Shown here one piece after another: positions 4,686 through 39,512 of a stretch of 64,000 nucleotides of DNA (the first letter of the stretch is position 1; each line of letters opens with the position of its first letter). The notes under the pieces are model-generated. The model saw nothing but the letters and a program-made list of their open reading frames with translations, did no database searches and had not been told where the DNA came from. Source of the DNA: Escherichia phage vB_EcoM_NBG1; the sequence record MH243438.1; one strand, 5' to 3'. The translations under genes were made by a program, and so were the position numbers.

Positions 4686-6668
4686 ATGGCACTTCTCTCT
4701 CCGGGCGTTGAGCTCAAAGAAACTACCGTACAGAGTACTGTAGTTAATAACTCCACTGGTACTGCTGCCCTGGCTGGAAAATTCCAATGGGGACCTGCAT
4801 TCCAGATTAAACAAATCACTGATGAAGTTGCATTGGTTGATATGTTTGGTACTCCTAATACAGATACAGCAGATTATTTCATGTCTGCTATGAACTTCCT
4901 TCAATATGGTAATGACCTTCGTGTTGTACGCGCAGTTGATCGTGATACTGCTAAGAACTCATCTCCTGTAGCAGGCAATATTGAATTCACAATCTCTGCT
5001 GCTGGTAGTAACTATGCAGTTGGTGATAAAATTATCGTTAAGTATTTGACCGAAACTGTTGAAGCAGATGGTTATGTCACTTCAGTTGATGTCGATGGTA
5101 AAATTCTTAACATTTATATCCCAACCGGTAAAATTATTGCTCGTGCAAAAGAAATTAATGAATATCCGGCATTGGGTTCTAACTGGACCGCCGAAGTTGC
5201 CAGTTCTTCTTCTGGACTCTCTGGCGTTATTACAATTGGTTCTATCGTAACCGATTCAGGTATTCTGTTAACTGAAGTTGAAACTTCTGAAGAAGCTATT
5301 ACTTCTCTAACTTTCCAAGAATCTATTAAAAAATATGGTGTCCCAGGCGTAGTTGCTCTTTATCCTGGTGAACTTGGCGACCAGCTCGAAATTGAAATCG
5401 TATCTAAAGCAGACTATGACAAAGGTGCTTCAGCCCAGTTAAAAATTTATCCTGATGGTGGTACTCGTGCATCTACGGCTAAAGCAATCTTTGGGTATGG
5501 CCCACAAACTGATGACCAATATGCAATTATCGTTCGTCGTAACGATGCTGTAGTTCAGAGCGTAATTCTTTCTACTAAACGCGGTGAACGCGATATTTAT
5601 GGTAGTAATATCTTTATTGATGATTTCTTTGCTAAAGGCGCAAGCAATTATATTTTCGCTACGGCACAAGGTTGGCCAAAAGGTTTCTCTGGCGTAATCA
5701 AACTGGGTGGTGGCTTATCATCTAATGAAACGGTTGACGCTGGTGATTTAATGGAAGCTTGGGATTTGTTTGCTGACCGCGAATCTGTTAATGCGCAGTT
5801 GTTTATTGCCGGTTCTTGTGCAGGTGAATCTTTAGAAGTTGCTTCTACAGTTCAGAAACATGTTGTAGCAATTGGTGATTCTCGCCAAGATTGCTTGGTT
5901 CTTTGCTCACCGCCACGTGCAACTATAGTCGGTATTCCTGTTAATCGTGCAGTTGATAATCTGGTTGATTGGCGTACTGCATCAGGAACTTACACTGATA
6001 ATAACTTTAATGTAAGTTCTACTTATGCTGCTATTGACGGTAACTATAAATATCAATATGACAAATATAATGACGTGAATCGTTGGGTTCCGTTAGCTGC
6101 TGATATTGCAGGTCTTTGTGCTCGCACAGACAATATTTCTCAGCCTTGGATGTCTCCGGCTGGTTATAACCGTGGACAAATTCTTAACGTTATTAAGCTT
6201 GCAATTGAAACTCGTCAACCACAACGTGATCGTTTGTATCAGGAAGCTATTAACCCTGTTACTGGTACCGGTGGCGATGGATATGTTCTGTATGGTGATA
6301 AAACTGCCACTTCCGTTCCTTCACCATTTGACCGTATTAACGTTCGTCGTTTGTTCAATATGGTTAAAACGAACATTGGTTCAGCATCTAAATATCGCCT
6401 GTTTGAATTGAACAACGCATTTACCCGTTCTTCTTTCCGTACAGAGACTTCTCAATATCTACAGGGTATTAAAGCTCTCGGTGGTGTATATAACTTTAAA
6501 GTTGTTTGTGATACTACCAATAACACCCCAGCAGTTATCGACCGTAATGAATTTGTAGCTACTTTCTACTTACAACCTGCCCGCTCGATAAATTATATTA
6601 CGTTGAACTTTGTAGCAACAGCAACTGGTGCCGATTTCGACGAACTGATTGGTGCTGTAGGTGGTTAA
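4686..6668 (+). CDS. 18: tail sheath protein gp18
   Basis: 660 aa; N-terminus MALLSPGVELKETT typical of T4 gp18; AAGAGGAA RBS. Confidence 0.9.
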   Translation: MALLSPGVELKETTVQSTVVNNSTGTAALAGKFQWGPAFQIKQITDEVALVDMFGTPNTDTADYFMSAMNFLQYGNDLRVVRAVDRDTAKNSSPVAGNIEFTISAAGSNYAVGDKIIVKYLTETVEADGYVTSVDVDGKILNIYIPTGKIIARAKEINEYPALGSNWTAEVASSSSGLSGVITIGSIVTDSGILLTEVETSEEAITSLTFQESIKKYGVPGVVALYPGELGDQLEIEIVSKADYDKGASAQLKIYPDGGTRASTAKAIFGYGPQTDDQYAIIVRRNDAVVQSVILSTKRGERDIYGSNIFIDDFFAKGASNYIFATAQGWPKGFSGVIKLGGGLSSNETVDAGDLMEAWDLFADRESVNAQLFIAGSCAGESLEVASTVQKHVVAIGDSRQDCLVLCSPPRATIVGIPVNRAVDNLVDWRTASGTYTDNNFNVSSTYAAIDGNYKYQYDKYNDVNRWVPLAADIAGLCARTDNISQPWMSPAGYNRGQILNVIKLAIETRQPQRDRLYQEAINPVTGTGGDGYVLYGDKTATSVPSPFDRINVRRLFNMVKTNIGSASKYRLFELNNAFTRSSFRTETSQYLQGIKALGGVYNFKVVCDTTNNTPAVIDRNEFVATFYLQPARSINYITLNFVATATGADFDELIGAVGG

Positions 6669-10263: not shown

Positions 10264-11076
10264 ATGATCAAAGAACAACTTTTGAAAGAAGCTCAGAACA
10301 TCGAGACTTCAGTTGCTCTTAATAGTGTTTTCGAATCAGTAGAACTGTCTCCGGACGTTAAAGCTAATTTCAGCACTGTATTCGAAGCCACCGTTAAGCA
10401 GGAAGCAGTCAAGCTGGCTGAATCTCATATCAAAGCCATCGCCGAAAAAGCCGAAGAAGAAGTTGAAAAGGCTAAAGAAGATGCTGAAGAGAAAGCTGAT
10501 AAAAAATTGGCTGAACAAGCTTCTAAATTCCTAGACCATCTTGCAAAAGAATGGCTCGCAGAAAACCAAATCGCAGTTGATAAAGGCATTAAAGCTGATT
10601 TGTTCGAATCCATGCTTGGTGGTCTGAAAGAACTGTTTGTTGAACATAACGTTGTTGTTCCAGAAGAATCTGTAGATGTTGTAGCAGAAATGGAAGAAGA
10701 GCTGGCCGAACATAAAGAAGAAACCGCTCGTTTGTTCGAAGAAGTTACCAAACGTGATGCATATATCAATTACGTTCAGCGTGAAACCGCTATTAATGAA
10801 AGCGTAAAAGACCTGACTGAATCTCAGAAAGAAAAAGTTATTGGCCTAGTTGAAGGTATGGATTATTCTGACGCATTTGGTACTAAGTTAACTGCTATTG
10901 TAGAAATGGTTAAAGGTTCTACTAAAGAAGAAGCCGCTATTACCGAAAGTATAAATACAGTTGACAATGACGCTGCCGGTCTTAATTTTGTTGCCGAAGC
11001 AGTTGACACTACCACAACTCAGGTAGAACAGAATTCTAATGTAAGTTTATATGCGAAAGTCGCATCTCGTTTCTAA
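10264..11076 (+). CDS. 22: major prohead scaffolding core protein gp22
   Basis: 270 aa, acidic coiled-coil-like; N-terminus MIKEQLLKEAQN. Confidence 0.9.
   Translation: MIKEQLLKEAQNIETSVALNSVFESVELSPDVKANFSTVFEATVKQEAVKLAESHIKAIAEKAEEEVEKAKEDAEEKADKKLAEQASKFLDHLAKEWLAENQIAVDKGIKADLFESMLGGLKELFVEHNVVVPEESVDVVAEMEEELAEHKEETARLFEEVTKRDAYINYVQRETAINESVKDLTESQKEKVIGLVEGMDYSDAFGTKLTAIVEMVKGSTKEEAAITESINTVDNDAAGLNFVAEAVDTTTTQVEQNSNVSLYAKVASRF
10950..10957 (+). promoter_or_regulatory. candidate late promoter TATAAATA inside 3' end of gene 22
   Basis: Exact TATAAATA about 137 nt upstream of gene 23 ATG; the distance is long, so uncertain. Confidence 0.35.
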
Positions 11077-29080: not shown

Positions 29081-29113
29081 ATGATAGTATCACACATCCA
29101 TGTGTTTGTAAAC
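29081..29113 (-). promoter_or_regulatory. early promoter (GTTTAC, 17 nt, TGTGTGATACTAT)
   Basis: Read on minus strand; the -35 overlaps the alt stop codon. Confidence 0.6.
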
Positions 29114-31200
29114 TATCCTTGGATAAATTTAAACGGAACTGATTCTAAATCCATTAAAGATGCTAACAATTTCAAACCTTTAGGTGCACTAGTTTTTTCT
29201 ACAAATGAGGCAAAAGATACCGGCTCATCTGATTCGATTTCACCCGTCATAGCAACTACCTCGCCTGTTTCCATGAGAACATCACCATCGTAAATGACAG
29301 CTTCGTCCAACTGGTCCGAGGACATGACTTCAGCTTGAATAAATTTAAGGTTGGATTCTAAACCTGCACCAGTGTCAGATGACGCATCTGTAATTTTATT
29401 TATCTGCAAGAGAATGCCTCTAGGCAAAATAATTTCTTGCTCATTAGGGTGATTACTCAACTGTCCCGGATAAATCACGTTAACTTTATGGGCGCCATCA
29501 ATAGCCCATCCAACGTTAACACGGATTTGTTCTGGTGCATGCATAGCTGTTCTTACTTGACTAGGAGAAATAGTAACACCTTCGTCGTTATTGTCAATGT
29601 TAAGCTCTTTGCGAACTTCTTCAGGAGCAAGTCCAAGGGCAACGTTCTCTTTAAACCCACCGAAAATAATAGGAGCTAGTGAAGTGGAAACATAGTTTCT
29701 GAAATAGAATACCTTATTTTTAACCATTGCTTCGTAAATAGGCATTCTGATAGACTGAGCTCTATATAACGTTAGTCCTTCAGGTAAACGGTCTCCATTT
29801 AAAAACGCCGAATCAAGACCATCAATAGCGCGTTTAACTTCATCTTCATCCGCAACATCGTAAAAATCTGGTTTATAACGACCTAACAACATATTATTGA
29901 TATCTGTATATGCAGAAGAGGCATATTCACGAATAGCTCGTTTTTCAGAAACAGAGTATTGTTTAGGGTCCCGATTCATTGTTATATTAAAGGTGCCTCT
30001 AGCCGATTCTCGGGCATAAGTATACATCACATTAGACAAGAACGCTGATTTACGTTGTTTCCAAGTTCTTTCAGATACTTCAGCTAAAACGTCGTCAGGC
30101 AGTTGGAAATTATCACGTCTAAAATCTTCAAACCATTCGTCTTTAATAGAGTCTGCAATTTCATTTGCAGCTTCAACAAAAGCAGCTAATGCTTTAACAG
30201 ATGTTGTTTTTTCGGTTTTAATTTTCTTAGCAAACTTTTCTAAAGTCGGCTTAATAACACCACCATAAGAAACTTCATCAGCAAATTTAAAGGATTCATC
30301 AATACGATTATAAATCTTATTTTCGATATCAGCAACTAAAGTGCCTTTTGCTGTGGATGATGCTTGGGCTAGTACGATTTCATATGCTTCAGGAAGTAAT
30401 TCGGCTGTAGCCGGGCCACTAACTTCTTTAGCAGAATTTTCGTATTTCTGGAATAACTCACCTTCTTGGCGGTCAGCTTCTAAAGATTGACTTGCTGCAA
30501 TAGCACGACGAGAAATTTTAGTACGAGCAATAACAGGCTTATCTTTACGTTTTTCTTCTACAGCAGCAATAGAACCAGCGATAGCCGTTTCTTTGGTGAC
30601 CTTTTCGCCAGTCTTTTTACTCACATAAACTTCGCCAACATCAGAATCTACTTTCGTGTACAACTCTGTGTTAATGTTAGGGATGCCTTTAATATCTTCA
30701 ATGTTGGCATTTTTACGAACCATCATCACATAGGTGTGTTTACCTGTGAATTGATACATTGCCGACAATACTTTAAAACGACCACCGGTTTTAGTAGAAA
30801 CTAAACGAGCAAGAAGAGTTTGAAGCTGTTGTCCACGTCCTTTCAATTTCTTGGTAGGGAATCGGAACAGAACTGCATCCATACGAAGAGCTTTAACTTG
30901 TTCATATACTGTATTGAAAATGGTGTTGATTGCATCAATAGGAGCAGGACCAAGGCCATTTTTCAATTCAGCGAGATTACCCTTTTCAGACAGACTCATA
31001 ATAACAACATGAGCGTATTTGTCGCCGAGTTTAACTTGTTTTACAGCATCGCCTTCGGAAAGGTAAGAGAATAAACGAACTACAATATTTGTATCGATAT
31101 CACCAATTTTCCAGACTTGTGGAACTTTAGCTTTAGGGTTCAAATTGACGACAGGAAGACTGCCTTCAGATTCAAACACTTCATTTAATTGTTCAGACAT
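29113..31200 (-). CDS. alt: Alt ADP-ribosyltransferase (packaged, modifies host RNA polymerase)
   Basis: 695 aa; C-terminal region carries YRAQS and FVSTSL (R-S-E-type ART motifs); position between 54 and 30. Confidence 0.85.
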   Translation of the reverse strand: MSEQLNEVFESEGSLPVVNLNPKAKVPQVWKIGDIDTNIVVRLFSYLSEGDAVKQVKLGDKYAHVVIMSLSEKGNLAELKNGLGPAPIDAINTIFNTVYEQVKALRMDAVLFRFPTKKLKGRGQQLQTLLARLVSTKTGGRFKVLSAMYQFTGKHTYVMMVRKNANIEDIKGIPNINTELYTKVDSDVGEVYVSKKTGEKVTKETAIAGSIAAVEEKRKDKPVIARTKISRRAIAASQSLEADRQEGELFQKYENSAKEVSGPATAELLPEAYEIVLAQASSTAKGTLVADIENKIYNRIDESFKFADEVSYGGVIKPTLEKFAKKIKTEKTTSVKALAAFVEAANEIADSIKDEWFEDFRRDNFQLPDDVLAEVSERTWKQRKSAFLSNVMYTYARESARGTFNITMNRDPKQYSVSEKRAIREYASSAYTDINNMLLGRYKPDFYDVADEDEVKRAIDGLDSAFLNGDRLPEGLTLYRAQSIRMPIYEAMVKNKVFYFRNYVSTSLAPIIFGGFKENVALGLAPEEVRKELNIDNNDEGVTISPSQVRTAMHAPEQIRVNVGWAIDGAHKVNVIYPGQLSNHPNEQEIILPRGILLQINKITDASSDTGAGLESNLKFIQAEVMSSDQLDEAVIYDGDVLMETGEVVAMTGEIESDEPVSFASFVEKTSAPKGLKLLASLMDLESVPFKFIQG

Positions 31201-31256: not shown

Positions 31257-31444
31257 TAATCCACAATCGGAAGCAAAGTACGATAAACTTCAAAATTAGA
31301 GCCTTTTTCGTACTTATCGAAATTGTCCATAAAAATATGATAGGAATCGTTATTAGGAAAATCTAATATAATCTGAGAGCAAGAGGTGGAAACATCTCCA
31401 CCATCCTTCTTAGCTACAATAACTGTTTCTAAATAAGCTTTCAT
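31256..31444 (-). CDS. hypothetical small protein (62 aa) between gene 30 and alt
   Basis: ATG at 31444 in TAATGA overlap with gene 30 stop; track start is an upstream GTG. Confidence 0.4.
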   Translation of the reverse strand: MKAYLETVIVAKKDGGDVSTSCSQIILDFPNNDSYHIFMDNFDKYEKGSNFEVYRTLLPIVD

Positions 31445-32937
31445 TATAAACCTGTCTGGGACCACGGTCCAAATACGTCTTCAAACGAATCCGCTTCTGT
31501 TTTATCAAAACGGAACCCTTTAATAATTGGAAGGAAAATACCTACAGTACCTTCACGGCCTTTAGAATGAACCCAACCATTACATTCACAATCAGCGATA
31601 CGTCCAATTAATTTACCTTCACGAGCTTCGGTCATTAATCGTTCACGGTCTAAATCATGACGCTCGTCTAAAGGAATAAGAACCTTTACACCGTCAACTG
31701 TTTTATGAGTTGTATCTTTAAAACCTGACCCACAATCGGTTGTAATACGACGACAACGTGATACGAGTTCGACACCACCTAATTTGTTAGGGTCTTTAGA
31801 GTGTTCATAGTATCCTACAACTTCTAAAGCGATATCAATAACTTCTTTAAATTTAATTAGGTTCTTAGAGCGTTTGTTTTCCCAATATGAATCACGGTTT
31901 TTAAGAATAATACCTTCAAGACCTTGGTCAACATATTTTTTATAAACCACTTTAGCTTCGTCAAGATTACGAACTAACTGATTTTCAATTGGCTCAATTC
32001 GCTTAAAGCCTTCAGCCATATTTTCAAGAGCAGCAAAACGAACATCGTATTTCTGACCTTTAATTTTGCCATCAGAATAGACTTCATCTAAAGGAACATA
32101 GTCCCAGGCTTGAAGAACCATACCTTCAGCTTCTTTAGGAGAAATAGTCCCTTGAAGAGATTTATTTGCTAAACCGTTTGAAGTGCTACGGTCCGCAACT
32201 TGTACTTCTTCGGATTCTTCATTATCACCAAATAAGAACGACAGGTCATTTCCTGAGCTCACAGCCTTTTTAATATCAAATGAATGGTAAACTAATTCAC
32301 CGTCGATTAAAACCCCATTAGGGTGTCTTTCACGAGCTTCTTTAGTCATTTCCATTAGTTCATCCGCTAATAGAGTAAGACCATGATATTCGTTGCCGGC
32401 ACGAGAAAAGAATTGAACACCATCATCGCGAACTTCAGCGAAACAACGAGCACCATCGGCTTTTAATTGAGCAAATGCAGGCCATTTAATATTTTTAGTA
32501 ATCAATTTCTCATCATATGCAGATGCTAACATCTGTGGTTGCAATTGAATAAGTCCAGGCCACACCTTATTCGCGATAGACACTGAAGCACCTACTTCAA
32601 GGTCGCGCATCATTACACGACGAAGGACTTCTACATCATCAGGTTTACCGTCAGCGATATAACCCATGAGCTCTTTAATTGCAGCATTACCAGTGAGTTT
32701 ACGAGTGGCTAATGTGAACTCAATAAAATCCAACATGTCATCTAATTCAAGAAGACCATACGCTTGAGACCTTTCACCTGGTCCTGGCCATTTCTTAATA
32801 TAATACTGGATACCACGTGCATATGTTAAACGATACACACGTTCAAGTAATTTGTTGTCCTTATTTTTCTTAAGGATTTCCTGTTTTGTTTTAGTAGAAC
32901 CGATCGCAGCTATTTGGTTTAAAATATCTAAAATCAT
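31444..32937 (-). CDS. 30: ATP-dependent DNA ligase gp30
   Basis: 497 aa; N-terminus MILDILNQIAAIGSTK; KADGAR adenylation motif. Confidence 0.9.
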   Translation of the reverse strand: MILDILNQIAAIGSTKTKQEILKKNKDNKLLERVYRLTYARGIQYYIKKWPGPGERSQAYGLLELDDMLDFIEFTLATRKLTGNAAIKELMGYIADGKPDDVEVLRRVMMRDLEVGASVSIANKVWPGLIQLQPQMLASAYDEKLITKNIKWPAFAQLKADGARCFAEVRDDGVQFFSRAGNEYHGLTLLADELMEMTKEARERHPNGVLIDGELVYHSFDIKKAVSSGNDLSFLFGDNEESEEVQVADRSTSNGLANKSLQGTISPKEAEGMVLQAWDYVPLDEVYSDGKIKGQKYDVRFAALENMAEGFKRIEPIENQLVRNLDEAKVVYKKYVDQGLEGIILKNRDSYWENKRSKNLIKFKEVIDIALEVVGYYEHSKDPNKLGGVELVSRCRRITTDCGSGFKDTTHKTVDGVKVLIPLDERHDLDRERLMTEAREGKLIGRIADCECNGWVHSKGREGTVGIFLPIIKGFRFDKTEADSFEDVFGPWSQTGL

Positions 32938-33203
32938 TTGATGTCCTCGATTTTGGTTACGGTTCTATTATAAGCCACTTCATCTAGAAGCGATTTCAGC
33001 GTTTTCTGATAAGTTGTAATCCATTTACCGAGTCCTTCAACATAGTATTCTGAAATGTAGATGAACCCTTGTTCAACACACTCTTTAAATATTTCTGTGT
33101 CTTTTACTGAACGAAACAATGGCCAGTCTCGAAAGAACATGTTAACGTGACCGTAGTCACGTGTGGTATTTTTGCCATCTGTAATATCATGAACTACAAA
33201 CAT
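32934..33203 (-). CDS. hypothetical protein (30.1 position)
   Basis: 89 aa; ATGA overlap with gene 30 start. Confidence 0.5.
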   Translation of the reverse strand: MFVVHDITDGKNTTRDYGHVNMFFRDWPLFRSVKDTEIFKECVEQGFIYISEYYVEGLGKWITTYQKTLKSLLDEVAYNRTVTKIEDIK

Positions 33204-33212
33204 AATTAACCC

Positions 33213-34037
33213 TTAACAATTTATAGACCAAGTCCATTTAGACGAATCTAAAGGAAAGTTTTGAATCGTCCACCACGGCTGCATATCAGTTGGTCCTGGG
33301 GTTCGCCAGGTATATGGAGTACGTGTTGTCGAGGGGCCACCAATTTGATTAGGCCATGCACCTGGACTTGTTGCACCAGATTCTTTAAGCAAATCCGCCA
33401 ATCGTTTTAAAAGGTCTTCACGATCTGAATCTGAATTATTCTTAGGCAGAACCAAACGAGATTCAATATCATCCCACGTGTGTACACGTTGTGCAGTACG
33501 AGGAATGGCATCACGTTCACCACGAGCCAACCAATAAATCGGTACATTAAGAATTTCTGCCGCATGGTCACAATGATGAGCTAAATCGTCAACGTAACAA
33601 ATTACGTTATATTTTGTTTTAGCTAGTTCGAATAATTGTTCCTTTGAAGAATCATGACCACACATCATTACTTCAGAGAAAGCGCCTGGGAACAAAGCAT
33701 TCAAATTAAATTGTCTATTCAATCGAGCATCAATTGAATCACCTAGCGCCGTCACGGCTACAAAATTATAGTCTTCTTTTAGTTTATTGATAACTCGAAG
33801 AGCATCAGAATAAGGCGCTAAGTAACGAATAAAATCAGAGCTATTATATTTTTCTATTAATTGTTTACCAAGGTTATCGTCGGTATTGAACAGTTTACCA
33901 GGAGAAATAAATTTTTCGTCCTGAATCATTTTTAAAATATGTTCTAATGGAAGGTTATATTTTTGGGCAAAATAAGGAAGTCCAGATTGCCAGCTTAAAC
34001 ATACACCATCAATATCAGTCAAAATAGTAGGCTTCAT
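33213..34037 (-). CDS. HAD-like hydrolase candidate (30.2 position)
   Basis: 274 aa; N-terminal ILTDIDGV resembles HAD motif I (DxDG); function unassigned. Confidence 0.5.
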   Translation of the reverse strand: MKPTILTDIDGVCLSWQSGLPYFAQKYNLPLEHILKMIQDEKFISPGKLFNTDDNLGKQLIEKYNSSDFIRYLAPYSDALRVINKLKEDYNFVAVTALGDSIDARLNRQFNLNALFPGAFSEVMMCGHDSSKEQLFELAKTKYNVICYVDDLAHHCDHAAEILNVPIYWLARGERDAIPRTAQRVHTWDDIESRLVLPKNNSDSDREDLLKRLADLLKESGATSPGAWPNQIGGPSTTRTPYTWRTPGPTDMQPWWTIQNFPLDSSKWTWSINC

Positions 34038-34492
34038 AAAGAGTCTCTTAGTAGGTTTAACACGTCAATAAATTCATCTTCAGTTAGTATTGTATCATCT
34101 TTTGTTAGATGGCTGGCCATGCTGTGCTTCAAAATTTTTCCTTTAGAGGCTTGTAAGGCATCACGAAACCCCTTGTTTTGGATCGCGGCTTCAAAATATG
34201 CATTTGTGTATAATTCTTTCCACGCTTCGGAGTATCTTGAAAATGGAACTCCTAACCAGAAGAGAGTCCCACGGTCCTGAGCTCTTGCGTAAGACCTTCC
34301 AGCTTGCTGTGCAGCCAATCCAGACAACCCAAATATACGTCTTTGCTGTTCAACATTTTTCACCTTACATCCTTGGAGAAATCCTTCAAGACCTCCGAAT
34401 TGAATACCATCCATAACAAAAGGCCATTGAGCAAAGTTACTTAATGCACATGACGGCCACTTGAAATTACTTCTTATTTCTAATTCAGACAT
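34034..34492 (-). CDS. NADAR-domain-like protein (30.3 position)
   Basis: LSNFAQWPF...DG...EGFLQGCK resembles the YbiA/NADAR N-terminal signature (FSNFA.WP...DG...E..FQA.K); ATG at 34492 preferred over track GTG at 34501. Confidence 0.5.
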   Translation of the reverse strand: MSELEIRSNFKWPSCALSNFAQWPFVMDGIQFGGLEGFLQGCKVKNVEQQRRIFGLSGLAAQQAGRSYARAQDRGTLFWLGVPFSRYSEAWKELYTNAYFEAAIQNKGFRDALQASKGKILKHSMASHLTKDDTILTEDEFIDVLNLLRDSL

Positions 34493-34703
34493 CTTTAACA
34501 CTTATAATTTCAACATCCGCCCAATGTCCGTATCCAGGTATACGGTCTTCGATAGATAAATTTCTGTCATTTTTAGGCATTTTAATTGACGTAACGTATG
34601 GTTCTAAACGGTTTTCCGCGTAATATGGAAAAACGTCGGTTACACGATAAGTAACTTCAATCATTTCCGTACCAAACAATTTCTGGATTAATTTATTCAA
34701 CAT
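34485..34703 (-). CDS. hypothetical protein (72 aa)
   Basis: ATG start; tightly packed in the 30.x cluster. Confidence 0.45.
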   Translation of the reverse strand: MLNKLIQKLFGTEMIEVTYRVTDVFPYYAENRLEPYVTSIKMPKNDRNLSIEDRIPGYGHWADVEIISVKDV

Positions 34704-34890
34704 GTTTCAACCCTTTAATAGGAGATAACTCTTTACCCATACGTATGTCAGAAGTCCAATCAACCCATTGAACAGCATACGCTTCATTGATAATTCCAGC
34801 AGCGGTTTTAAATTCAGGGAGAACTTTAAAAATCACCCCAGGAATTCCAACACCTTTTAATTGGACTGTTTGTGCTATTAAAAATTTCAT
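34693..34890 (-). CDS. hypothetical protein (65 aa)
   Basis: ATG start; overlaps neighbour by 11 nt. Confidence 0.45.
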   Translation of the reverse strand: MKFLIAQTVQLKGVGIPGVIFKVLPEFKTAAGIINEAYAVQWVDWTSDIRMGKELSPIKGLKHVE

Positions 34891-34944
34891 ATTTTTCCAC
34901 TTACTAAAGAAATCATTATACTCTAATCCGTCCTTGGATGTAAA

Positions 34945-35559
34945 CTACTTAATGAAATTAATTTCTACCGGATGAACAACAGGTTGAGCAGTGATATATT
35001 GAGTAATTGCTTTCATGACTAGAGCTTCAGAACCAGGATTTTTCTCAACGAATTCACGTGCTTGGTTATGAGCTTCAAGTTCACTTAGTAAACCACTTCG
35101 TTGACATCCACGGTCTTGAGTACCCTGTTCAGATAAAAAGGCGACGATGTATTTTTCATCGTCATACGGTTTAGACGGTTGAGCAAATGTTCCTTTACTT
35201 CCAAAAGGAGAGTTATGACGCCACATCACGCCGTGAGGAGTTTCAACCTTCGTGTATTCATGCGGTCCATTTTTCTTAGTTTCTTTCCATGGAACTTCAT
35301 GGACCTTAGGGTTAGGACATTCAATAAAATGCTCATCTAAATCGGTCGAGAATATTAAAGTAAAACAATTACTGAATTTACCAACACCTGCCTGATAAAT
35401 TTTACCTTCAGAAGTTCTAATTTCACAAACTGAGCCAGCATCAGTAACTTCTAAAACTTCAAAAGGCTCGATAAGGTCATATGAGAACATGTTTTTAAGG
35501 CGTGGAGTAATATCCCCATTTTTAAAATTCATTTTATAAAAAGTATTAACTTTAAACAT
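34945..35559 (-). CDS. hypothetical protein (204 aa; 30.6 position)
   Basis: ATG with GAGGAAA RBS. Confidence 0.5.
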   Translation of the reverse strand: MFKVNTFYKMNFKNGDITPRLKNMFSYDLIEPFEVLEVTDAGSVCEIRTSEGKIYQAGVGKFSNCFTLIFSTDLDEHFIECPNPKVHEVPWKETKKNGPHEYTKVETPHGVMWRHNSPFGSKGTFAQPSKPYDDEKYIVAFLSEQGTQDRGCQRSGLLSELEAHNQAREFVEKNPGSEALVMKAITQYITAQPVVHPVEINFIK

Positions 35560-35571
35560 AATTTCCTCAAT

Positions 35572-35587
35572 GGGAGCCGAAGCTCCC
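35572..35587 (-). other. UUCG hairpin (GGGAGC-UUCG-GCUCCC) between 30.7 and 30.6
   Basis: No U-tract; immediately 5' of the 30.6 RBS. Confidence 0.45.
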
Positions 35588-35594
35588 AGTTAAA

Positions 35595-35960
35595 TTAGAT
35601 ATCAAATTCGTTAAGAACTACATCAAAGATTGCTTCGAGATGTTCATGTTTAGCTCGGTTACTCAGGATATGACGAATCCAAGTTTTAACCAGAAGTTTA
35701 CGATTAACACCGTTCCAGCAAGGATGAGTACCTAAATCACGCTGACGGAAATCATCATCTAATGCAATTTTGAAGTTGGAACCTTCCATTGTGATTGAAA
35801 CCGTGATGCCATTTTCAAATCGCATATAAACATAATTAGGAGTCATGCACTGCTCAATTTCACATACTGAACCATTTTTATGCTTCCACAAACAAACCAT
35901 ATCGATAGAACCAGCGATACCGTTAGAAACATATTTGCGTTCGAAGTTGGTGTAGTTCAT
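35595..35960 (-). CDS. hypothetical protein (121 aa; 30.7 position)
   Basis: ATG start; own early promoter upstream. Confidence 0.5.
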   Translation of the reverse strand: MNYTNFERKYVSNGIAGSIDMVCLWKHKNGSVCEIEQCMTPNYVYMRFENGITVSITMEGSNFKIALDDDFRQRDLGTHPCWNGVNRKLLVKTWIRHILSNRAKHEHLEAIFDVVLNEFDI

Positions 35961-35995
35961 TTTATTCTCCAGATGTTTAAGTTGTTTGTTGGTAC

Positions 35996-36032
35996 AGGTC
36001 TATAATAACATAACCTGTACCAAAGTAAACTG
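35996..36032 (-). promoter_or_regulatory. early promoter (GTTTAC, spacer, GGTTATGTTATTATAGAC)
   Basis: Read on minus strand upstream of ORF 35595-35960. Confidence 0.55.
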
Positions 36033-36034
36033 TT

Positions 36035-36403
36035 TTATGCAACTTTAATCCAATTGTCTAAATTTAAAACACCTTTGGCTTTCATTTTTTCGATCAGGTT
36101 ATCTGCTGTAATGCGTCCATTTTGATACCATGTAACATCTTCAGAGTAACCAGTTTCTTCGTCAACATATGTTTCTGAACGAATTTTACCGGTAATAATA
36201 GTTTTTAATTCGTATGTGTCACCTGTGAAAAAGTTTGCTAACACAATTTTCCAAGAGAAATCATCTGAAGGACCTTCAGGGGTCATACAACCTACGAACT
36301 CAAATTGCTCTTTGTATAACATCCACTGGAATTCTTTAATTTCGATAGCTTTATAACCGTCGTGGTCTTTACATTTGATGTATGAGTTCAGATTGATTTT
36401 CAT
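36035..36403 (-). CDS. hypothetical protein (122 aa; 30.8 position)
   Basis: ATG start; own early promoter. Confidence 0.5.
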   Translation of the reverse strand: MKINLNSYIKCKDHDGYKAIEIKEFQWMLYKEQFEFVGCMTPEGPSDDFSWKIVLANFFTGDTYELKTIITGKIRSETYVDEETGYSEDVTWYQNGRITADNLIEKMKAKGVLNLDNWIKVA

Positions 36404-36438
36404 TTTATTCTCCGATTGTTTTATTGATTAGGTGGTAC

Positions 36439-36475
36439 AAGTCTATAGTAACACATCCTACAGGAGAGTAAACAT
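36439..36475 (-). promoter_or_regulatory. early promoter (GTTTAC, spacer, TGTGTTACTATAGAC)
   Basis: Read on minus strand upstream of ORF 36035-36403. Confidence 0.6.
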
Positions 36476-36506
36476 CTTTTTTTAAACTTTTTCTGCCCTA
36501 AACGCA

Positions 36507-36529
36507 CAAAAGGGAGACCGAAGTCTCCC
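36507..36529 (-). terminator. terminator GGGAGAC-UUCG-GUCUCCC plus UUUUG (same 18-nt hairpin as after gene 23)
   Basis: Identical hairpin sequence in the transcript orientation. Confidence 0.7.
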
Positions 36530-36534
36530 TAAAA

Positions 36535-36714
36535 TTATGCAACAACCTTTCCAAAACGAGAAGCATCATCTCGAAGAACTGCACGTGCTCTGCGCATGAT
36601 CTTCTCAACGGTTTGATTAATACGAGAGTTCGACCCACGCTTGTATCCAGCGCGTTTAGAGGTACCATCAACTTTCTTTTCAACTGCTTTCTTTGCTTTA
36701 GCTTGTTTTGCCAT
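36535..36714 (-). CDS. small basic protein (59 aa, MAKQAKAKKAVEKK...; 30.9 position), not in ORF track
   Basis: Hand-translated; ATG at 36714, TAA at 36535; Lys/Arg-rich; the track ORF 36498-36683 is in another frame and looks spurious. Confidence 0.5.
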   Translation of the reverse strand: MAKQAKAKKAVEKKVDGTSKRAGYKRGSNSRINQTVEKIMRRARAVLRDDASRFGKVVA

Positions 36715-36877
36715 TATAAATTCTCTTTAAATGAAAATGCAGGACTTATTGACATTGCCTGCGCAAGCCCTCAACGGGAACATAGGTTTTGGATATTTAA
36801 CGACAGGATAACCATAAACCCGTCATCATACCTACCATGACTTACACAGCTAACCTTTTGCTGACGCATGATAGCAA

Positions 36878-37126
36878 TTATTTCAAAGTAATAACAAAAT
36901 GACGAACTGCTTTGCGTGCTGCAGAAGCCAGAGGCTTAGCATATTTCAATTCATCTTTAGCTTCCAGTTCAGAAGCCAGAGTAGCCTGAGCAGGATTCAG
37001 GTGTTTGAAATAACGCAGGATTTCCAGTGCTTCGGCTTCAACATCAATTGACGCACCGTAGTTTTCGTGACCGTTATTCCATGCGTTGCGTTGCAGTTCA
37101 AGAGCGTGTTGTAATTGTTTAATCAT
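36878..37126 (-). CDS. rIII: rIII lysis-inhibition accessory protein
   Basis: 82 aa (same as T4 rIII); position between 30.x and 31. Confidence 0.75.
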   Translation of the reverse strand: MIKQLQHALELQRNAWNNGHENYGASIDVEAEALEILRYFKHLNPAQATLASELEAKDELKYAKPLASAARKAVRHFVITLK

Positions 37127-37242
37127 TTTAAATTCTCAATTCGAGATAATATTTAGTAGCCACGTTCGTCTGAATTTCACCTTCTTTCGACAAGTCTCTC
37201 AGTTGTAGGCTACCGCTTAGAAGAGTGTTCTCTTCATATAGT

Positions 37243-37250
37243 TATTTATA
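37243..37250 (-). promoter_or_regulatory. late promoter TATAAATA (minus strand) abutting gene 31 stop
   Basis: Exact octamer on minus strand about 120 nt upstream of rIII. Confidence 0.4.
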
Positions 37251-37583
37251 TCACTTATAAAGACACGGAATAGCTTTATAGTGGCATGTTACGAATTTCT
37301 GTTTAATTTCTTTAGGTTGTTTAAGTCCCAAAGCCACAAATGGATGTGGAACATTTCGAATTTGTCCAACTGGCAGTGGAGTCAAATCACCGACTTCAAC
37401 AAAACCTTTAGGAACATCAGGACCTACAGAATGAACTACACATAGTTCAGGAACTTCACCTTGAACACGTTTACCAATCACAAGTCCTGATTCGGTAACT
37501 TCTTCATCACCTGCTTGAGCGGGTTCAGAAACCAGAATGACATATTCACCAACAGCACGAATTGGGAGTTGTACTTCAGACAT
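37251..37583 (-). CDS. 31: co-chaperonin gp31 (GroES analogue)
   Basis: 110 aa; near-identical to remembered T4 gp31. Confidence 0.9.
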
Positions 37584-37938: not shown

Positions 37939-38520
37939 TTATTCACCACAAAAGTTTCGAATTTGTTCCCAATTCAGAGAACGAAGATTATTACGAGAGT
38001 ACTGAATTACTTCAATACCAGCTTGTTTAAGAATGTCTGCCCAATTTTCAGGAGATCTGTCATATAATTCCGCGTATACAACCTTTTTAATACCTGACTG
38101 CGTAATAGCTTTAGTGCAATCAGGACACGGAGAAAGCGTAGTATATAACGTAGCACCTTCAATAGAATTACCTTTACGAGCTGCAAACAAAATTGCATTC
38201 AGTTCCGCATGGATTTCGTTATTGGCAGACCAGGCACTATGAGCGGCCCGATGTTCTTTAGCCAAAACAAAATTATCTGCCCGTCCAAATGCTGTAGTGC
38301 CTTCTTTATGTCCAGCAATGATGACCGGTCTTGGATTATTCTTCAACCAGCCATTTTCGGATGCATGTTCGCAACAGTTAACACCACCTGAAGGAGAGCC
38401 ATTATAACCTGTAGAAATAATGCGTCCATCTTTTTCAATGACGGCACCAACTTTCCATGAACAACATTTTGATTCTTGAGAAATCAGATATGCAATCTGA
38501 AGGTATGTGCTAGCTTTCAT
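37939..38520 (-). CDS. cd: dCMP deaminase
   Basis: 193 aa (same as T4 Cd); HAELNAI and PCPDC zinc-binding motifs. Confidence 0.9.
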   Translation of the reverse strand: MKASTYLQIAYLISQESKCCSWKVGAVIEKDGRIISTGYNGSPSGGVNCCEHASENGWLKNNPRPVIIAGHKEGTTAFGRADNFVLAKEHRAAHSAWSANNEIHAELNAILFAARKGNSIEGATLYTTLSPCPDCTKAITQSGIKKVVYAELYDRSPENWADILKQAGIEVIQYSRNNLRSLNWEQIRNFCGE

Positions 38521-39512
38521 TATTGAACCTTATTAATATAAGTTAACAGCTCTTTAGTTTGTTCCCAACTGATGCACGCATCGGTAACGGAAACGCCATA
38601 GGACATATTATCAGAAATTTTTTGATTTCCTTCATGTAGGAACGATTCTATCATAATTCCTTTGACCAAATCATTAGCTGCTAAATTTTTACCAATACCA
38701 ATTTGATTGCTATAATGCCCATCAGCGTTTGCATGGCTACAGTCAACCATTACATAATGATTCAGACCTACTGCCCTTGCTTTGTTAGAAGCTTCTTGAA
38801 TATCAGAAGAATGATAGTTCGGGCCGTTGGTCCCGCCACGCAATACGATATGCGTATTCTGATTACCTTCAGCTTCAACAATGCCTACAGTACCATCGAC
38901 GTCCATACCCATATACCGATGAGGCCAGGCGGCACTATACATCGCGTCTGTAGCTACTTTAATAGAACCATTGGTTGCGTTCTTGAAGCCTACGCACATC
39001 GGTAGACCTGAAGCAATTTCACGATGTGTCTGACTTTCAGTCGTACGGGCGCCAATAGCAACCCATGAGAAAATACCAGAAAGATACTTAATCGTGAACG
39101 GGTCTAATACTTCAGTTGCTAATGGAAGTCCCATACGTAGAAGTTTACGACACAATGTTCGTGCAACTATAAGACCGTGGTTCATATCAAAACTTCCGTC
39201 AAGATATGGATCATTTACAAGACCTTTCCAACCTACGGTAGTTCGAGGCTTTTCAAAATAAACGCGCATCACTAACAGAACATTAGGAAGACGAGTTTGA
39301 AGTTCAGCCAAACGTTTGCCGTATTCAACAGCAGCAATAGGGTCATGAATTGAACAAGGACCTACAACAATAAGTTTGCGTGGGTCTTCACCGTTCATAA
39401 TCGAATTAACTTGTTCGCGATGAGAAGCCACTTGTGATGCGTAAGCTTCCGACAAAGGAATAATCTCAGCCAGTTCTTTTGGAGAAATAAGTTTTCTGAT
39501 GACAGGTAACAT
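38520..39512 (-). CDS. class I 3-deoxy-D-arabino-heptulosonate-7-phosphate (DAHP) synthase, AroG/F/H-like
   Basis: 330 aa with VVGPCSIHD, EKPRTTVGWKG, GARTTESQ, DCSHAN, ESFLHEGNQ, TDACISWEQ motifs collinear with E. coli AroG; AAGGA RBS; stop overlaps cd ATG (TAATG). Confidence 0.85.
   Translation of the reverse strand: MLPVIRKLISPKELAEIIPLSEAYASQVASHREQVNSIMNGEDPRKLIVVGPCSIHDPIAAVEYGKRLAELQTRLPNVLLVMRVYFEKPRTTVGWKGLVNDPYLDGSFDMNHGLIVARTLCRKLLRMGLPLATEVLDPFTIKYLSGIFSWVAIGARTTESQTHREIASGLPMCVGFKNATNGSIKVATDAMYSAAWPHRYMGMDVDGTVGIVEAEGNQNTHIVLRGGTNGPNYHSSDIQEASNKARAVGLNHYVMVDCSHANADGHYSNQIGIGKNLAANDLVKGIMIESFLHEGNQKISDNMSYGVSVTDACISWEQTKELLTYINKVQ

Follow-up and report, generated by a model that had tools for sequence, protein, structure and literature searches.

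The gene 30.3 locus

The DNA analyzed here, referred to as the window, is a stretch of 64,000 nucleotides from Escherichia phage vB_EcoM_NBG1 (MH243438.1). Gene 30.3, here called adfN, is located on its minus strand (Table 1). The ATG is at 34492 and the TGA stop at 34036-34034. A GTG at 34501, three codons further upstream, is given as the start in the program-made list of open reading frames. It was dropped for the ATG, which agrees with the annotated 30.3 starts of both T4 and RB69.

The gene order in this part of the window is alt, alt.1, 30 (DNA ligase), 30.1, 30.2, 30.3, 30.4, 30.5 and, further on, 31 and cd. Genes 30 through 30.5 are all on the minus strand. The location of adfN between 30.2 and 30.4, downstream of the ligase gene, is that of Tevenvirinae synteny. 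The original prediction had assigned the gene to the 30.x cluster of a phage that also encodes the Alt ADP-ribosyltransferase, and both statements hold: the ligase gene and 30.1-30.5 are found in order, and Alt is located at 29113-31200 on the minus strand (PF03496, E=5.5e-28).

The coding sequences of 30.4, adfN and 30.2 are tightly packed. The final 8 nt of 30.4 overlap the start of adfN, and the ATG of 30.2 overlaps the adfN stop in an ATGA junction. Given these overlaps at starts and stops, translation of the three genes is probably coupled. A sigma-70-like site upstream of 30.5 is a candidate early promoter for 30.5-30.4-adfN-30.2, in a region where the total number of such sites is not above that in shuffled sequences.

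Table 1. Features of the adfN locus, with positions in the window
Feature	Position	Strand	Remarks
adfN (gene 30.3) coding sequence	34034..34492	minus	152 aa + stop; predicted NADAR-fold DNA ADP-ribosylglycohydrolase
N-terminal NADAR motif LSNFAQWPFVMDGIQFGGLEGFLQGCK, residues 17-43	34364..34444	minus	contains predicted catalytic E36, K43
E36 codon	34385-34387	minus	
K43 codon	34364-34366	minus	
H123 codon, histidine of last β-strand	34124..34126	minus	invariant in 60/60 homologs
C-terminal α-helix, residues 138-152	34037..34081	minus	AlphaFold2 model: helix 138-151
Gene 30.4, 72 aa, phrog_2042	34485..34703	minus	open reading frame list; T4/RB69 synteny
Gene 30.2, 274 aa, phrog_420	33213..34037	minus	DxDGV-type N-terminus, weak HAD-like match
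Sigma-70-like consensus match TTTACA-18-TATAAT, 11/12	34915..34944	minus	upstream of 30.5; consensus scan; candidate promoter

Judged by sequence, the phage is an RB69-like Mosigvirus. Several Escherichia and Shigella T4-like phages match the region at 97.5% identity, and Escherichia phage FL18, a Mosigvirus (the genus of RB69), encodes exactly the same adfN protein (100% identity).

Directly adjoining the dCMP deaminase gene (cd), a DAHP synthase of 330 residues is encoded at 38520-39512 on the minus strand (PF00793, E=5e-75). DAHP synthase catalyzes the first step of the shikimate/aromatic amino-acid pathway. The gene is absent from T4 and RB69 at the corresponding position. Homologs are found in 212 phage records, from Escherichia, Klebsiella, Proteus, Serratia and other T4-like phages. 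A full-text literature search for DAHP synthase in T4-like bacteriophages found no paper, and the gene may be an unstudied auxiliary metabolic gene.

The adfN product is predicted to adopt a NADAR fold

The adfN protein matches the Pfam family PF08010 (Phage_30_3) over the entire profile (positions 1-138 of 138, E=2.1e-69, 232.1 bits versus a cutoff of 36). In PHROGs it belongs to phrog_652, a family without an assigned function. Neither NCBIfam nor PADLOC gave a match for it, and neither did a search of PDB sequences with the single sequence.

The original prediction was that the N-terminal segment carries the YbiA/NADAR signature, to be verified by an HMM search against the Pfam NADAR family. 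For the single adfN sequence, no match to this family (PF08719) was found at E<=1. This is misleading as a refutation, because Pfam has a family of its own for gp30.3, PF08010. We collected 82 homologs, all of which match PF08010, and aligned the 60 full-length ones as a family profile. Among these 60, 23 individually match PF08719, with a best E of 1.5e-7, so the proposed search succeeds at the level of the family and fails for the single sequence. Some of the 82 homologs are named 'YbiA (DUF1768 family)' by JGI.

Searches with the family profile point to NADAR as well. In a search of all PDB sequences, the only match is E. coli YbiA (E=0.0089), and it covers the proposed motif, which corresponds to residues 17-43. 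Alignment of the family with E. coli YbiA by hhalign extends over residues 15-122, with a probability of 93.2% and E=2.9e-7. An AlphaFold2 model was built from the 60-sequence alignment, with a pLDDT of 92.8 and a pTM of 0.88. The top three Foldseek matches of the model in the PDB are all NADAR structures: YbiA (2B3W, E=6.9e-5), a Phytophthora NADAR with ADP-ribose (8BAU) and the DarT1-associated NADAR from Geobacter lovleyi (8BAT). The remaining matches are noise. The comparison of a predicted structure with YbiA, which had been suggested as a check, therefore came out in favor of the NADAR assignment. On the basis of the profile, hhalign and AlphaFold2/Foldseek results, the predicted fold and the homology are established independently of the literature.

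Conserved residues and the C-terminal helix

Eleven positions are invariant in all 60 homologs: S18, N19, F20, E36, G37, F38, Q40, K43, H123, L136 and T137. In the hhalign alignment, E36 is paired with E48 of YbiA and K43 with K55. The catalytic Glu and Lys of the N-terminal motif, which contact ADP-ribose in NADARs, are therefore both present. In T4 AdfN, the substitutions E36A and K43A impair function (PMC11825919).

H123 is located in the last β-strand of the AlphaFold2 model (residues 120-123), and one column beyond the end of the hhalign alignment it comes to lie opposite E125 of YbiA. Published comparisons indicate that the residue at this position distinguishes NADAR subfamilies, with a Glu in the YbiA family, an Asp in the DarG1/BC4488 family and a His in the phage gp30.3 subfamily (PMC11125620, PMC11543638). 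The NBG1 protein has neither the Asp of the DarG1 type nor the Glu of the YbiA type. The protein retains its full length of 152 residues, and its C-terminal helix is intact. This helix is needed for full AdfN activity, and the phenotype of its truncation is known (PMC11825919).

The T4 ortholog and the proposed function

The T4 ortholog of the protein has been characterized. The DarTG1 resistance of T-even phages was mapped to gene 30.3, which was renamed adfN, and its product gp30.3 was named AdfN, for "anti-DarT factor NADAR" (Johannesman et al., Nat Commun 2025, PMC11825919). During infection by T-even phages, T4 adfN is both required for DarTG1 resistance and enough to confer it. Purified AdfN strips ADP-ribose from DNA modified by DarT1, and this removal of guanine ADP-ribosylation rescues phage replication. 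AdfN of T4 does not bind DarT1, does not act against DarTG2, and does not relieve DarT1 toxicity outside T-even infection (PMC11825919). It does not neutralize DarT1 in uninfected cells, and phages other than T-even ones are not fully rescued (PMC11825919, PMC11125620).

T4 gp30.3 hydrolyzes guanine-ADPr in vitro and is inactive on thymine-ADPr (Cihlova et al., Toxins 2024, PMC11125620). The Methods of that paper give the gp30.3 construct as 'residues 1-208', which does not match the 152-residue gene. The NADAR mechanism had been established earlier, and the His in phage NADARs was noted in the same study (Schuller et al., Mol Cell 2023, PMC11543638). In the HIDEN-SEQ transposon screen, insertions in adfN were lost only when DarTG1 was present. 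On E. coli K-12, T4 can do without adfN unless DarTG1 is present, in which case the gene is essential, and a separate macrodomain factor, tk.4/AdfM, counters DarTG2 (preprint 10.1101/2025.11.20.689424).

The adfN product of NBG1 is very probably an early-expressed, orphan-antitoxin-like NADAR that hydrolyzes guanine-ADP-ribose on phage DNA and neutralizes DarTG1. The enzymatic activity, the anti-DarTG1 phenotype, the specificity for guanine rather than thymine (and so for DarTG1 rather than DarTG2) and the T-even context are carried over from the 96%-identical ortholog, and we infer that the NBG1 allele acts like T4 AdfN. In the proposed mechanism, a small stand-alone glycohydrolase with the NADAR fold would be made from the early 30.x cluster. 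During infection of a cell with DarTG1, DarT1 would ADP-ribosylate guanines in the phage DNA, and replication would be blocked. AdfN would then hydrolyze the N-glycosidic bond between ADP-ribose and guanine, which would restore the DNA and allow replication to continue. It would behave as an 'orphan antitoxin' that copies the NADAR antitoxin DarG1 of the host. Catalysis is expected to involve the Glu/Lys pair E36 and K43 together with H123, the subfamily-specific His of the last strand, and the C-terminal helix would be required for full activity. The original prediction had proposed a counter-defense role through reversal of the guanine ADP-ribosylation made by DarT-type toxins. This is what has been shown for T4 gp30.3/AdfN (PMC11825919; PMC11125620; 10.1101/2025.11.20.689424).

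Conservation of adfN and of its neighbors

The gene is much better conserved than the sequences around it. Between NBG1 and T4, 30.3 has a nucleotide identity of 88.9% and an amino acid identity of 96.1%, and the codon differences comprise 39 synonymous and 6 non-synonymous changes. Amino acid identities are only 63% for 30.2, 51% for 30.4, 64% for the ligase and 55% for 30.1. The 39:6 ratio and the far more diverged flanks indicate that adfN is under strong purifying selection at the sequence level. Conservation similar to that of adfN is seen for gp31 (95.5%), rIII (92.7%) and 30.7 (93.4%). Recent horizontal transfer was considered as a cause of the high conservation and rejected. A ratio of 39:6 at 89% nucleotide identity favors long-term purifying selection, and gp31, rIII and 30.7 behave alike.

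The cluster as a whole (31444-37583) is sharply mosaic relative to T4. Amino acid identity is 93-96% for the products of 30.3, 30.7, rIII and 31, and 38-64% for those of 30, 30.1, 30.2, 30.4, 30.5 and 30.8. The 30.8 product is only 56% identical to that of RB69 despite the same genus. At 34945-35559 on the minus strand, an open reading frame of 204 residues (phrog_17531, no Pfam match) takes the place of the 95-residue 30.6 of T4 and RB69. A homolog of it is found within 5 kb of 30.3 in 1 of 80 related loci. By sequence comparison, this is a replacement specific to the lineage, within a 30.x cluster that is hypervariable.

Across the family, the gene is not tied to this neighborhood. Of 80 related IMG/VR loci, 21 have 30.2 within 5 kb of the gp30.3 homolog and 20 have the ligase gene at that distance, and the loci with these neighbors are all Tevenvirinae-like. 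In 59 of the 80 loci, the homolog is located away from the ligase region. Most homologs of ~40% identity are placed in other neighborhoods. Since most of these diverged homologs have other neighbors, adfN behaves, in these sequence comparisons, like a module of its own, and 30.2 is no general partner of the family. The 30.2 product has a HAD-type N-terminal motif (LTDIDGV), a match to HAD_2 that is below the Pfam cutoff (E=0.014) and a Trp/Pro-rich tail. Because it looks HAD-like and its start overlaps the adfN stop, it was considered as the T-even cofactor. As an obligate partner of the family it was rejected, since 30.2 is near the gp30.3 homolog in those 21 loci only. The HAD match is below threshold, and HIDEN-SEQ names adfN alone as conditionally essential with DarTG1. 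A lineage-specific helper role of 30.2 is possible but unsupported.

The conservation raises the question of whether AdfN does more than counter DarTG1. Such a role was considered because adfN is conserved like an essential gene, because the flanking 30.2 and 30.4 are at 51-63%, and because AdfN is fully functional only inside T-even infection. AdfN might be recruited by an essential T-even protein, for example a component of the replisome or of recombination, or might remove other guanine adducts. If so, it would be better described as a phage-specific module for DNA repair than as an anti-defense gene with a single purpose. We consider this extension unlikely.

The NBG1 allele compared to T4 and RB69

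T4 AdfN is encoded by the same gene by synteny, has the same length of 152 residues, and is 96% (96.1%) identical in amino acids. E36, K43, H123, the intact C-terminal helix and the predicted NADAR fold are common to the two proteins. T4 is a Tequatrovirus, whereas the NBG1 genome is that of a Mosigvirus. Six substitutions separate the proteins (NBG1 to T4): K11R, E89P, I120V, M125I, H128G and D139A.

RB69 gp30.3 is the closest in DNA (95.9% nucleotide identity) and comes from the same genus. It shares K11, E89, I120 and M125 with NBG1, whose H128 and D139 are found in neither T4 nor RB69. RB69 is sensitive to DarTG1 because a T inserted at nt 411 costs its protein the final 15 residues, which form the C-terminal helix (PMC11825919). 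Our DNA alignment showed that this single extra T, which causes the frameshift and the loss of the 15 residues, is absent from NBG1. The truncated 30.3 spans 10268-10681 of the compared RB69 sequence.

We searched 50,697 phage records for the junction created by the insertion. It is found only in the two RB69 records, and the insertion-free junction is found in 59. In IMG/VR, the junction with the insertion occurs 0 times and that without it 4 times. By these counts, the intact sequence of the NBG1 gene is the normal one, and the defect is peculiar to the RB69 strain. Because the frameshift is confined to the RB69 records, the DarTG1 sensitivity of RB69 is a peculiarity of the strain rather than a trait of Mosigvirus. 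Our analysis of the NBG1 gene itself establishes the open reading frame, the predicted fold and the family to which the protein belongs, and shows that its key residues are conserved, that the allele is intact and that purifying selection on it is strong.

T4 has an annotated internal out-of-frame gene, 30.3', of 75 residues. In NBG1, this frame is interrupted. The equivalent region, at 34129-34356 on the minus strand (6403-6630 of the compared T4 sequence), has a stop codon after 34 codons. Because of this stop, 30.3' was ruled out as a conserved gene, and it is probably not a real gene.

An intact allele could still be weakened or shifted in specificity, for example tuned to another DarT1 homolog. 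The NBG1 protein differs from T4 AdfN at six positions. At two of them, H128 and D139, RB69 does not share the NBG1 residue either, and D139 starts the C-terminal helix. However, all six are located among the most variable columns of the 60-homolog alignment. The identical or nearly identical protein is also common in isolates, with at least 99% identity in 64 phage records. The purifying selection on adfN argues against a weakened allele as well. In addition, published RB69 x T2 chimeras with the RB69-type N-terminal part are resistant to DarTG1. A weakened or retuned NBG1 allele is thus very unlikely.

Comparison with other NADARs and anti-DarT factors

The proposed function of AdfN resembles that of DarG1, but the two proteins differ in several respects. 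DarG1 is a NADAR of the BC4488 family, represented by those of E. coli C7 and Geobacter lovleyi (8BAT). It has an Asp on the last strand where AdfN has a His, consists of 219 residues compared to 152, and is encoded beside darT1. DarG1 relieves DarT1 toxicity in uninfected cells, whereas T4 AdfN does not. The adfN gene is not in an operon with DarT1, as its neighbors are 30.2 and 30.4. PADLOC gave no matches for 30.2 either. The sole ADP-ribosyltransferase nearby is Alt, a member of another family (PF03496) encoded at a distance of about 3 kb.

AdfN-Bas32 and AdfN-Bas60, two further phage NADARs, and AdfM/Tk.4 follow the same counter-defense logic, that of a phage-borne, orphan antitoxin-like ADP-ribosylglycohydrolase. 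The Bas32 and Bas60 proteins come from different NADAR clades and do not depend on T-even infection. AdfM, with its macrodomain fold, acts on thymine-ADPr and counters DarTG2. The NBG1 gene is none of the three.

YbiA is established as an N-glycosidase of riboflavin intermediates. A metabolite-repair enzyme of this type, acting on reactive intermediates of the riboflavin pathway, would be an alternative to a DNA de-ADP-ribosylase, as YbiA is the best Foldseek match and the sole PDB sequence match, and the N-terminal motif is common to both. However, YbiA (2B3W) and the Phytophthora PnNADAR (8BAU), both in the YbiA family (PF08719), are only 18-20% identical to AdfN. The D..WG segment that follows the last-strand Glu in YbiA is missing from gp30.3. 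That Glu, which defines the YbiA family, is an invariant His in gp30.3 (PMC11125620). The T4 ortholog hydrolyzes guanine-ADPr on DNA, its only known phenotype depends on DarTG1, and the neighborhood contains no riboflavin-related genes. We therefore regard a YbiA-type function as highly improbable.

The adfN product might instead reverse or edit the ADP-ribosylation or RNAylation made by the phage's own Alt, ModA and ModB. Alt is on the same strand as adfN and close to it, and adfN is as conserved as essential genes (96% versus 95.5% of amino acids for gp31), which could hint at a role beyond one defense system. The Alt/Mod enzymes, however, modify arginines in proteins. Given that all NADARs tested are specific for guanine-ADPr (PMC11125620, PMC11543638), that T4 adfN is dispensable on E. 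coli K-12 and essential only with DarTG1, and that the gene is away from the ligase region in 59 of the 80 loci, we attach almost no weight to this explanation, and the processing of Alt-made ADP-ribosylation suggested in the original prediction finds no support.

Implications

Hydrolysis of guanine-ADP-ribose on phage DNA, which would counter DarTG1, thus accounts best for the adfN product of NBG1. For the T4 ortholog, papers from 2023 to 2025 had already described the family, the fold, the catalytic residues, the activity and the anti-DarTG1 role. Public entries for phages of this group, that of the identical FL18 protein among them, still say 'hypothetical protein'. The practical value of our analysis is in the annotation: the gene can be named adfN and its product a NADAR DNA ADP-ribosylglycohydrolase. 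Because the adfN allele is intact, this Mosigvirus, unlike its relative RB69, is predicted to be resistant to DarTG1.
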